Positions 59,447 to 60,140 of a stretch of DNA of 64,000 nt are shown here, in pieces. Position numbers and translations under genes: made by a program. Position 1 is the first letter of the stretch. Every line of letters starts with the position of its first letter. Source of the stretch: an uncultured Gammaproteobacteria bacterium (GTDB lineage Bacteria; Patescibacteriota; Patescibacteriia; Magasanikbacterales; GWA2-37-8); NCBI GenBank assembly GCA_964355175.1, contig CAYHBZ010000002.1, forward strand, positions 268,537-332,536. The letters are read 5' to 3'. Below the pieces are notes generated by a model that had not been told where the DNA came from, did not search any database, and saw only the letters and a program-made list of their open reading frames with translations.

Positions 59447-59592
59447 TCAGTAATTAATTTAGGCTATTAGTTATGTTTGTTCTTTTTATCTGTTGGAGTG
59501 GGGAATAATGATTTAATTTTATTGAATTTTTATTTCCTGCTCCAACTGTTGGTTGTTGGTAAAGGGGTGTCAGTTCATCGGGGGTGGACAGG

Positions 59593-59985
59593 ATGAAGAA
59601 GCTTCTTCGGTGTGAAAATTGTGGTGAAGAACGCCAGCACCACGACGTCAGGAGTGATATCTCGCGTGGTAGTAGGGCGACTGCTGTTTTCGCTTGCGAT
59701 ACCTGCAAGCAGGAGCAGGGGCCGATCGCCGTGAGTAAGGATGAGCTTATGGGTCGTCCGCCGCCGTCGGAGGTGCGCTTCCACTGTGAAGACTGCCAGA
59801 CCACTAGTGATCATCGTGTCACGACGATCTGGCGCGGCCATGTGCGGGCCACGATCGTGCTCCATTGCACCGAGTGCAATCGCGAGGCGCGTCGGCAAGC
59901 CCCCGTGGACGAGATTCCTCAGGTATTCCTGGATCTCGAGCCCAAGCCCAAGGCGGCTGGCGAAGAAGTGGTGTCGACGGCCTAG
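59593..59985 (+). CDS. G+C-rich small protein with two tandem zinc-ribbon modules (4 x CxxC)
   Basis: CENC...CDTC and CEDC...CTEC with an evident internal duplication (RCENCGEERQHHDV...RATAVFACDTC versus HCEDCQTTSDHRV...RATIVLHCTEC). GC-rich codons, stop TAG. A GTG 3 codons upstream is also possible. Confidence 0.5.
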   Translation: MKKLLRCENCGEERQHHDVRSDISRGSRATAVFACDTCKQEQGPIAVSKDELMGRPPPSEVRFHCEDCQTTSDHRVTTIWRGHVRATIVLHCTECNREARRQAPVDEIPQVFLDLEPKPKAAGEEVVSTA

Positions 59986-60140
59986 GCAGCCTTGAGCCAA
60001 CCCGCAACCTCTGTGCACGGCAGAGGAAATTTAACAACCAAAGGGTTCCCAGCTGGTAGATGGGAACAAGGAAGGTGGCGACCGTTCGTGCACGGTCGCA
60101 ACTTCTAATGTATATAATTAGTTGTATTCATTAAAAACAA

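Follow-up and report, generated by a model that had tools for sequence, protein, structure and literature searches.

The 64-kb window examined here (64,000 nucleotides; contig CAYHBZ010000002.1, positions 268,537 to 332,536) belongs to a 953,736-bp genome, small and AT-rich, of the candidate phyla radiation (CPR)/Patescibacteria type, and its RplL is 83 to 88% identical to RplL of Candidatus Magasanikbacteria metagenome-assembled genomes (MAGs). All window-level scans reported below cover these 64 kb. Our subject is a GC-rich islet between the ribosomal protein gene rplL and a convergent gene for a 746-amino-acid (746-aa) protein. It holds a small open reading frame (ORF) encoding a tandem zinc-ribbon protein, followed by a structured RNA element in the 3' untranslated region (UTR), and between related genomes the ORF is hyperdivergent while the RNA is conserved.

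The locus and its zinc-ribbon gene

Upstream of the islet lie an L10 leader (Rfam, 58298 to 58457), rplJ, and rplL, and beyond the 746-aa gene there is a 197-aa helix-turn-helix (HTH)-like gene. The order rplL/746-aa/197-aa is widespread among relatives, most of which have ~60 to 130 bp with one bidirectional terminator between rplL and the 746-aa gene, versus a gap of 786 bp in the window. The GC content from 59551 to 60120 is 57.5%, against a window mean of 40.4%, and the third-position GC content (GC3) is 0.67 in the ORF, against 0.35 to 0.44 in the adjoining genes. An initial annotation of the window had described a GC-rich islet with an ORF, then a GC-rich hairpin and an AT-rich bidirectional terminator, and the sequence is as it described: the hairpin is real (60078 to 60099), and the terminator is present (Table 1). 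The locus and the surrounding 3.9 to 6.4 kb are 100% identical among four independent assemblies and hence are no assembly chimera; the exact protein is also recorded on the 953,736-bp NCBI contig.

In six of six orthologous loci, the rplL terminator is followed directly by TTTTTT(A/G)TTGACAAA, invariant except at one position, and 17 bases farther on a -10 element of the form TAnnnT is kept (TAGGCT in the window, TAGTCT, TAAAAT in locus L089, and TATTTT). We consider this a candidate sigma-70-like promoter of the unit; it is absent from relatives without the zinc-ribbon ORF. A consensus promoter scan missed it in the window because the -10 element fits at just three of six positions. The window shares a 5'-UTR hairpin, with changes in the arms, only with L089; the alleles at L085, L094, L093, and L087 do not have it.

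Table 1. Features of the zinc-ribbon locus, in window coordinates
Feature	Coordinates	Strand	Evidence
rplL intrinsic terminator, left edge of the unit	59400..59435	+	Stem-loop and T-run; kept in 6/6 orthologous loci (alignment A3)
Candidate sigma-70-like promoter: -35 TTGACA 59437-42, 17-nt spacer, -10 TAGGCT 59460-65	59437..59465	+	Conservation alone
5'-UTR hairpin, one allele class	59492..59546	+	Inverted repeat, 26-nt arms, 77% complementary
Shine-Dalgarno-like G-run GGGGGTGG, 5 nt ahead of ATG	59580..59587	+	Read from sequence
Tandem zinc-ribbon ORF, 130 aa; module 1 (C7-C38) nt 59611-59706; module 2 (C65-C95) nt 59785-59877; disordered C-terminal tail	59593..59985	+	
Conserved structured 3'-UTR RNA, helices H1 to H3 and AU-rich tail	60003..60127	+	Homology, covariation, fold score
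Bidirectional intrinsic terminator common to the unit and the convergent 746-aa gene (60174-62414, -)	60128..60180	.	22-nt arms, 95% complementary, A-/T-runs alongside

Read from a GTG codon, the plus-strand ORF spans 59584 to 59985 and encodes 133 aa; the start is more likely the ATG at 59593 (130 aa), preceded by GGGGGTGG, and every allele has a G-rich motif ahead of its start codon. The ORF of the initial annotation stands, with its length of 131 aa corrected accordingly. The cysteines (C7, C10, C35, C38, C65, C68, C92, and C95) form four CxxC knuckles, as had been seen; the first spacer is x24, as annotated, and the second is x23. The Pro/Lys/Ala-rich tail is also present (EPKPKAAGEEVVSTA), is variable among alleles, and has AlphaFold2 pLDDT values of <50. 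The internal duplication that had been proposed leaves no match when the N-terminal half is compared with the C-terminal half by BLASTP, but hhalign of the N-module profile against the C-module profile (8 members each) gives an E value of 5e-5 over 37 columns, and the duplication is therefore real.

A full HMMER scan of 1.84 billion (1.84e9) cluster representatives recovered seven relatives with E values of 9e-24 to 1e-4; a word-indexed protein search returned the query alone from the single protein and four of the eight members from the alignment. The family consists of eight alleles, seven of them with DNA. Several members had mis-called N termini, either too short or too long, and once start sites were corrected from the DNA, all eight proteins were 126 to 132 aa long and began with M-x3-5-C-x2-C. 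Pairwise amino acid identity is 18 to 56%. The eight cysteines, H16, E98, and R100 are invariant in all members, and the motif C-x2-C-N-x-E-x-R...(E)IP..L is fixed (the family consensus after the last CxxC being N-x-E-x-R-R), while nearly all other nonligand positions vary. The most variable columns are the hairpin tips (residues 20 to 28 and 78 to 85). As for the suggestion in the initial annotation of a nucleic acid-binding regulator, isoelectric points (pI) range from 6.3 to 9.7 between alleles, a spread that does not favor a conserved polyanion-binding surface. Given the invariant cysteines, zinc binding is predicted.

AlphaFold2, run on a shallow alignment, modeled two four-stranded beta modules and a disordered tail (mean pLDDT, 80.5), with strands flanking the knuckles (E2-7/E12-23 and E28-35/E41-48, and the same pattern in module 2). 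The predicted modules have the features that define a zinc ribbon, namely, two CxxC knuckles ~15 to 30 residues apart, each at a beta-hairpin turn, and an antiparallel sheet of three or four strands, so that the fold prediction agrees with the initial annotation of a tandem zinc-ribbon mini-protein. Fold matches were all zinc ribbons, none of them significant. The top Foldseek match in the PDB was the two-ribbon protein A12.2 of RNA polymerase I (4c2m_I; E = 0.016, TM score of 0.27, nonsignificant), and in BFVD single modules superposed on small phage ribbons, NrdR-N, and TFIIS-like proteins, including a 51-aa phage zinc-ribbon protein at a TM score of 0.87 and a root mean square deviation of 1.4. 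Against Pfam and NCBIfam, all scores of the window protein fell under the curated cutoffs, at the level of pattern (zf-DNL, DUF7479/7836, and a dual-CxxC small protein). The single protein had no significant match in a sequence search of the PDB, and the family profile gave eL42/L44e (E = 0.006, the top match), Tim15 with its DNL zinc finger (0.02), and bL33 (0.055). No homologue was found in a scan of viral contigs, and PHROGs yielded weak matches to unannotated or generic zinc-ribbon families, the best at 8e-5 in two members. An HNH-endonuclease assignment, raised by weak matches to 4h9d and PHROGs, was rejected because the D-H and N positions are unconserved in the family.

Divergence of the ORF and conservation of the 3' RNA

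Between the window and L085, the neighboring proteins are 98% (RplJ), 96% (RplL), 94% (the 197-aa protein), and 85% (the 746-aa protein) identical, whereas the zinc-ribbon proteins are 31 to 34% identical, and the DNA is homologous up to 59444 and again from 60009. The boundaries are tightest between L085 and L094, whose flanks share 95% and 89.6% identity across 8 kb and whose alignment breaks from 6 nt ahead of the start codon to ~25 nt past the stop codon (L094 376..791). For this pair the flanking genes have synonymous divergence (dS) of 0.40 to 0.61 and nonsynonymous divergence (dN) of 0.002 to 0.03, and the ORF has saturated synonymous sites (proportion of synonymous differences [pS], 0.77) and a dN of 0.64. 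Where both proteins carry the same residue, codons are identical at 45% of positions in the ORF versus 73 to 80% in the flanks (Fisher P = 8e-5), and in four pairs the identical-codon fraction of the ORF is 0.44 to 0.51 irrespective of host distance. The pair L087 and L098 behaves similarly, with an ORF dS of 1.56 and dN of 0.36 against an rplL dS of 0.136. Within-ORF dN/dS ratios are 0.23 to 0.4, which indicates purifying selection on the scaffold.

Allele and host relationships also disagree. The window allele is nearer to that of L089 (dN, 0.52, with the 5'-UTR hairpin in common) than to those of L085 or L094 (dN, 0.68), and the host order is reversed, the 746-aa gene having a dN of 0.32 to L089 versus 0.09 to L085/L094. 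Each allele is identical across samples (the window allele in four assemblies, and those of L089, L085, and L087 as well), so there is no ongoing diversification within populations. The alleles therefore appear to be old, roughly equidistant, and set in younger flanks, for which the simplest cause would be allele exchange by homologous recombination within the clade, with a locally raised mutation rate as the alternative. As a separate observation, the rplJ-rplL block (58278 to 59444) is 92.5 to 95% identical to that of L085 (dS, 0.12 to 0.135), and the genes on either side are 70 to 80% identical (dS, 0.9 to 1.7); a tract of recent recombination that ends at the zinc-ribbon locus, or else strong codon constraint, would account for this.

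Past the stop codon, DNA homology to L085, L089, L093, and L094 resumes at 60003 to 60009 with a conserved element of 105 to 125 nt that has three helices (alignments A2, A4, and A7) and is ~80% identical where the ORF is unalignable. Helix H1 (60008 to 60026, loop GCACG) occurs as CCUCUGU/GCAGAGG, UCUCUGU/ACAGAGA, ACUCUU/AAGAGU, and CUCUUUG/CAAAGAG. The arms of H2 (60045 to 60067, loop GCUGGUAGA) read GUUCCCA, AUUCUCA, GUUCCU, or ACUCUC(C), each with a matching partner. H3 comprises an invariant inner stem, GCGACCGT/ACGGTCGC with loop UCGUGC (60078 to 60099), which is the hairpin of the initial annotation, and an outer stem (60070 to 60074/60102 to 60106, GGAAG/CUUCU) with A-U to G.U variants; a conserved AU-rich tail, ACUUCUAAUGnAUAUAAU, follows on its 3' side. 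The G.U variants of the outer stem fit the plus strand only, which indicates that the hairpins are selected as RNA. In an alignment fitted to the structure model, 94% of cells are paired, against 42 to 53% in slid controls, and 12 pairs show compensatory double changes, a number reached in 0 of 500 shuffles. The fold z-score of the element is -7.3. The loops of H1, GCACG(A/G), and H3 are both invariant and could base-pair with each other in a possible loop-loop contact.

The RNA goes with the ORF. A covariance model of the element (R1) matched only at ORF-bearing loci, including the divergent copy at L098 (78 bits), and nowhere else among 76 loci or in the window; a weak match in L033 proved to be an unrelated hairpin plus terminator. 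An Rfam scan at gathering thresholds (4,227 models) returned the L10 leader and a tRNA-Leu only, a permissive Rfam scan of 59380 to 60200 gave only chance-level matches over 60003 to 60127, and a metagenome scan for the exact H3-tail pattern found the L089 contig only. A small ORF (GTG at 60076) and a promoter (TATAAT-like, 60113) within the element were considered and dismissed on inspection, as neither is conserved and the promoter would fire into the terminator. With its hairpins, AU-rich single strand, and intrinsic terminator at the mRNA end, the element resembles bacterial 3'-UTR small RNAs and tRNA-like 3' elements. By eye, the H2 loop AGCUGGUAGA recalls a D-loop and the H3 loop UUCGUGC a T-loop, but neither ARAGORN nor any Rfam model, tRNA included, recognizes the element. 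Most likely the RNA acts in cis or as a processed RNA, and transcript stabilization, processing, and service as a platform for a conserved partner are candidate roles.

Every homologue with DNA or gene context (P0005 on four contigs, P0006, P0007, P0008, P0009, P0010, and P0011) lies directly after rplL, on the same strand, ahead of the convergent 746-aa gene or its fragment. The hosts are related Magasanikbacteria-like genomes in which the neighboring 746-aa protein is down to 59% identical. The homologous genes have 53 to 55% GC, versus 35 to 44% around them; GC3 is 0.55 to 0.74 in all alleles, versus 0.22 to 0.44 in neighbors, and third-position A is 5 to 16%. Because the homologues are GC rich in the same slot, the unusual composition dates back as far as the family itself and is no mark of recent import.

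A second GC-rich islet in the window (44761 to 46150, 57 to 59% GC) bears on the same point. Its ORF (44821 to 46077, plus strand) encodes a 418-aa Rossmann-like protein, named a predicted amino acid dehydrogenase in some sources, and is flanked by a PemK/MazF toxin gene (44354 to 44719) and a 7TM histidine kinase gene. Many Patescibacteria have homologues in this same PemK/gene/histidine kinase context, and the region is colinear with L096 in one 7.1-kb alignment at 79.5% identity. The gene (GC3, 0.67 to 0.70, versus 0.24 to 0.56 in its neighbors) is vertically inherited and still GC rich in genomes at 72% and 50% identity, and GC-richness here is therefore a long-lived, gene-specific trait rather than a sign of recent transfer. 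No boundary motifs or repeats are common to the four GC-rich islets of the window. Folding of the zinc-ribbon ORF mRNA (z = -0.8) is no better than that of shuffles, which rules out RNA structure as the cause of the GC content of the ORF.

GC-richness is thus a maintained property of the gene, not the trace of a recent import. GC3 is reportedly raised in recombining genes in one bacterial study. The causes we favor as candidates are GC-biased gene conversion at a much-recombining locus and selection on codon or mRNA composition. For the first of these, a genome-wide association in bacteria is reported in PMC4450053.

Interpretation and alternatives

Our preferred explanation, which we hold tentatively, is that the locus is a lineage-restricted, independently transcribed gene in which a rigid zinc scaffold carries variable surfaces under diversifying pressure or allele exchange and is accompanied by a new structured mRNA element. 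The promoter, Shine-Dalgarno motif, 130-aa ORF, three-helix 3'-UTR RNA, and terminator would then form a complete transcription unit bounded by the terminators of rplL and of the 746-aa gene in one Magasanikbacteria-like (Patescibacteria/CPR) subclade. The two homologous C4 zinc ribbons probably provide a rigid, metal-stapled scaffold, and the ORF behaves as a hypervariable cassette, the divergence starting and ending with it. Old alleles may have persisted and been exchanged by homologous recombination, for which the conserved promoter and 3' RNA would provide the flanks, with diversifying selection, either frequency dependent or of the arms-race type, acting on them. The protein would thereby be a binder of a fast-changing partner (phage, host, or competitor), of a conflict type rather than a housekeeping type. 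The strongest candidate for a constant contact is the C-x2-C-N-x-E-x-R...(E)IP..L motif, a role that the RNA may also fill.

Several points weigh against this explanation. With within-ORF dN/dS ratios below 1, positive selection is not demonstrated, and relaxed constraint acting on old alleles would look similar. The incongruence of allele and host trees is drawn from identities of 31 to 41% over ~125 sites, and the 5'-UTR hairpin pattern could also come from a lineage-specific deletion. The whole evidence base is eight alleles, seven with DNA. The RNA pair counts come from an alignment fitted to the structure model, and inner H3 and the loops, being invariant, are uninformative for covariation. 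Since the ORF mRNA lacks excess folding, RNA structure fails to explain the GC content. Nothing links the gene to known defense, mobile, or toxin systems: no such genes lie beside any allele, and PADLOC assigned the window protein to 0 families, with one weak match in one of eight members (HEC-08, E = 0.014).

The initial annotation saw a foreign composition, as would follow from recent horizontal acquisition from a GC-rich donor with insertion after rplL. The sharp GC step (57% versus 40%) is in keeping with such an event, and a neighboring islet (56910 to 58277) is indeed a true insertion, absent from L085 and L089. Yet all seven homologues are found in this slot, in related genomes, with a high GC content there as well, none occurs in other lineages among the 1.84e9 representatives or in viral contigs, no mobile genes flank the locus, and the promoter and 3' RNA inside the islet follow the host phylogeny. 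Recent acquisition is thus largely refuted and highly improbable, and the homologues, which the initial annotation had proposed to look for next to defense or mobile genes, lie in housekeeping contexts throughout, with PADLOC blank for the window protein. Least credible of all is that the islet has no plus-strand gene and that either a minus-strand ORF (59575 to 60018, 147 aa) or nothing coding is the real feature. Five of seven alleles keep this shadow frame open, and GC content by codon position cannot tell the two frames apart, but where TTA, CTA, and TCA codons are scarce, as in a GC-rich ORF, an open antisense frame is to be expected. The shadow frame is moreover interrupted in L094 and L087 (97 and 55 codons), its product has no Pfam match, and it is the plus frame that is intact in all alleles, keeps its cysteines in four CxxC knuckles, and has a Shine-Dalgarno motif and a confident zinc-ribbon model; the shadow ORF thus does not displace the annotated one. 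A more serious rival, still unlikely in our judgment, is that the RNA is the functional product (e.g., a 3'-UTR-derived small RNA) and that the ORF is weakly constrained and fast drifting, with no role in conflict. The ~80% identity of the RNA beside an unalignable ORF, its strong structure and covariation, the within-ORF dN/dS ratios, and the unconserved pI would all suit such an arrangement. Drift, however, cannot outpace the neutral rate, and between L085 and L094 the dN of the ORF matches or exceeds the dS of the flanks while its synonymous sites are saturated. All alleles retain the frame, the length, the eight cysteines, and the CN-E-R motif, and the RNA is never found without the ORF.

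Targeted hypermutation, by a diversity-generating retroelement (DGR) or another local mutator, would take the downstream hairpins as cis elements and the GC bias as a mutational footprint. DGRs are common in CPR, and at the DGR target of phage BPP-1 an initiation-of-mutagenic-homing (IMH) element and a hairpin lie downstream. The zinc-ribbon locus likewise combines a hypervariable coding segment, with divergence limited to the ORF and synonymous sites included, with a conserved GC-rich hairpin just downstream. DGR targets, however, vary at adenine-templated sites in a C-terminal C-type-lectin fold, whereas here the whole ORF differs; the alleles are stable across samples; and the G.U covariation shows the hairpins to be selected as RNA. 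A search of the 64-kb window for DGR parts (an ORF scan, a Pfam search with the lone YxDD ORF, and a blastn comparison of islet and window) found no reverse transcriptase and no template-like repeat, the YxDD ORF being a D-Ala-D-Ala carboxypeptidase. We regard hypermutation as very unlikely. Integron cassettes share with the unit an exchangeable, ORF-sized segment, a hairpin-forming element (attC), and tight ORF boundaries. The zinc-ribbon unit differs in having its own promoter, a single fixed site between rplL and the 746-aa gene, and no integrase, and further copies of the 3' element, as in an integron array, are absent from the window. attC sites are conserved in structure and variable in sequence and act as single-stranded DNA, whereas the 3' element is conserved in sequence and has RNA-type G.U covariation on the coding strand. 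A long shot of a related kind is a dedicated diversification locus, in which a mechanism that rewrites exactly the ORF would use the conserved promoter and tRNA-like 3' RNA on either side as its cis elements. Such rewriting could be RNA templated and retrohoming-like or a site-directed cassette exchange, with GC-richness, seen also in other genes, as its footprint; if true, minimal CPR genomes would have a new means of varying a binding protein.

A housekeeping role is the remaining alternative, namely, a zinc ribbon of the ribosome or translation (eL42/bL33-like) or an Hsp70 escort-like factor of the DNL type, encoded beside the rplJ-rplL operon. The position right after rplJL fits, as do the profile matches to eL42/L44e, Tim15, and bL33. 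With eL42/L44e and bL33 the protein shares a CxxC-x5-H-x-V knuckle-strand motif, over ~30 residues of marginal similarity. DNL zinc fingers (Tim15/Zim17/Hep1, PF05180) resemble module 2 in the pattern F-x-C-x2-C-x5-H-x-V...G-x-V-x-x-C-x2-C, and PF05180 is the Pfam family with the most member matches (three of eight at E ≤ 0.1, the best at 2e-5, given without bit scores). The window protein nevertheless scores 14.1 to 14.2 bits against a gathering threshold of 27 and lies under every Pfam and NCBIfam cutoff, and the PDB matches are marginal, all covering one knuckle or strand pattern. N-x-E-x-R stands in place of D(N/H)L after the second CxxC, the ribbon is tandem rather than single, and there is no link to Hsp70. 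Conserved ribosomal or chaperone partners are ill suited to a protein with 18 to 56% identity between alleles, and ribosomal proteins are themselves highly conserved, whereas this one is hypervariable, missing in most relatives, and has its own promoter behind the rplL terminator. We consider such a role quite improbable.

In architecture the closest likeness is to Rpb9, A12.2, C11, and archaeal TFS, proteins of ~110 to 130 aa with two tandem C4 ribbons and a linker and with CxxC-x(23-24)-CxxC as in the TFIIS-type ribbon; A12.2 was the top Foldseek match in the PDB, and a TFIIS-like phage protein was second in BFVD. The similarity does not extend to sequence or to RNA polymerase gene context, the host is bacterial, the A12.2 match is nonsignificant, and the zinc-ribbon protein has no Pfam match to TFIIS_C or RNA_POL_M_15KD. 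Its hairpin tips are variable and lack the conserved acidic DE catalytic loop.

As a fold, the zinc ribbon is nothing unusual. Pfam, NCBIfam, PADLOC, PHROGs, Rfam, and the papers searched contain no account of the family, its RNA motif, the hyperdivergence precise to the ORF, or the inherited GC anomaly, nor did the papers describe persistent GC-rich genes in CPR. The family is restricted to a single chromosomal slot in a single CPR subclade, where the covarying RNA, a concrete new candidate for Rfam, is always present with it. Divergence of the ORF alone between near-identical flanks places the gene among the fastest changing in otherwise streamlined genomes, and it thus offers a candidate way into the conflict or host-interaction biology of uncultivated Patescibacteria. 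There is also a methodological point. Since at least two genes (the zinc-ribbon gene and 44821 to 46077) keep a GC3 of ~0.6 to 0.7 where other genes have 0.2 to 0.45, a GC-rich islet in these genomes cannot be read as recent horizontal transfer.

Other islets and junctions

Two further GC-rich islets lie in the window. The islet at 56910 to 58277, upstream of rplJ, is an insertion of 1.37 kb that L085 and L089 do not have. Its ORF (57142 to 57954, minus strand) has a 270-aa product that is Cys-rich, of secreted or lipoprotein-like character, and contains Stig1 repeats (PF04885, 1e-13). A perfect inverted repeat of 11 bp (TCAAATTGCGC at 57006 to 57016 and GCGCAATTTGA at 57969 to 57979) brackets it. 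In the ENA/Logan contigs L001 and L002 the gene is called on the opposite strand (228 and 235 aa). The islet at 14121 to 14770 (59% GC), between rpmE and rpsB, has an ORF (14272 to 14658, minus strand) for a 128-aa protein with an N-terminal hydrophobic segment, a Cys-rich C terminus, and no Pfam match, which forms a singleton cluster. Relatives without the zinc-ribbon unit have GC-rich islands (54 to 64% versus 39 to 49%) upstream of rplJ, in the same slot as the Stig1 islet and with unrelated ORFs (L010 2501 to 3130, L022 1551 to 2390, L025 1791 to 2610, and L030 2231 to 2670). The flanks of the rplJL operon thus appear to collect GC-rich accessory genes in this lineage.

In distant relatives, the rplL/746-aa junction holds unrelated genes of host-like GC content, from 125 aa to 524 aa, the latter GuaA-like by eye (L006 4400 to 5300, L020 4380 to 5760, L084 385 to 1535, L013 4400 to 6290, and L050 4370 to 5630), and the junction is a general variable spot. 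Within rplL, the Logan contigs L003, L004, L093, and L094 start at or near the equivalent of 59116 to 59127, in the repeated GCTGCTGCTCCAGCT of the Ala-rich L12 hinge (59110 to 59160); this common start is probably an assembler k-mer break and not biological variation. Elsewhere in the window, a 2,440-codon open frame of host-like composition runs from 16997 to 24316 on the plus strand.

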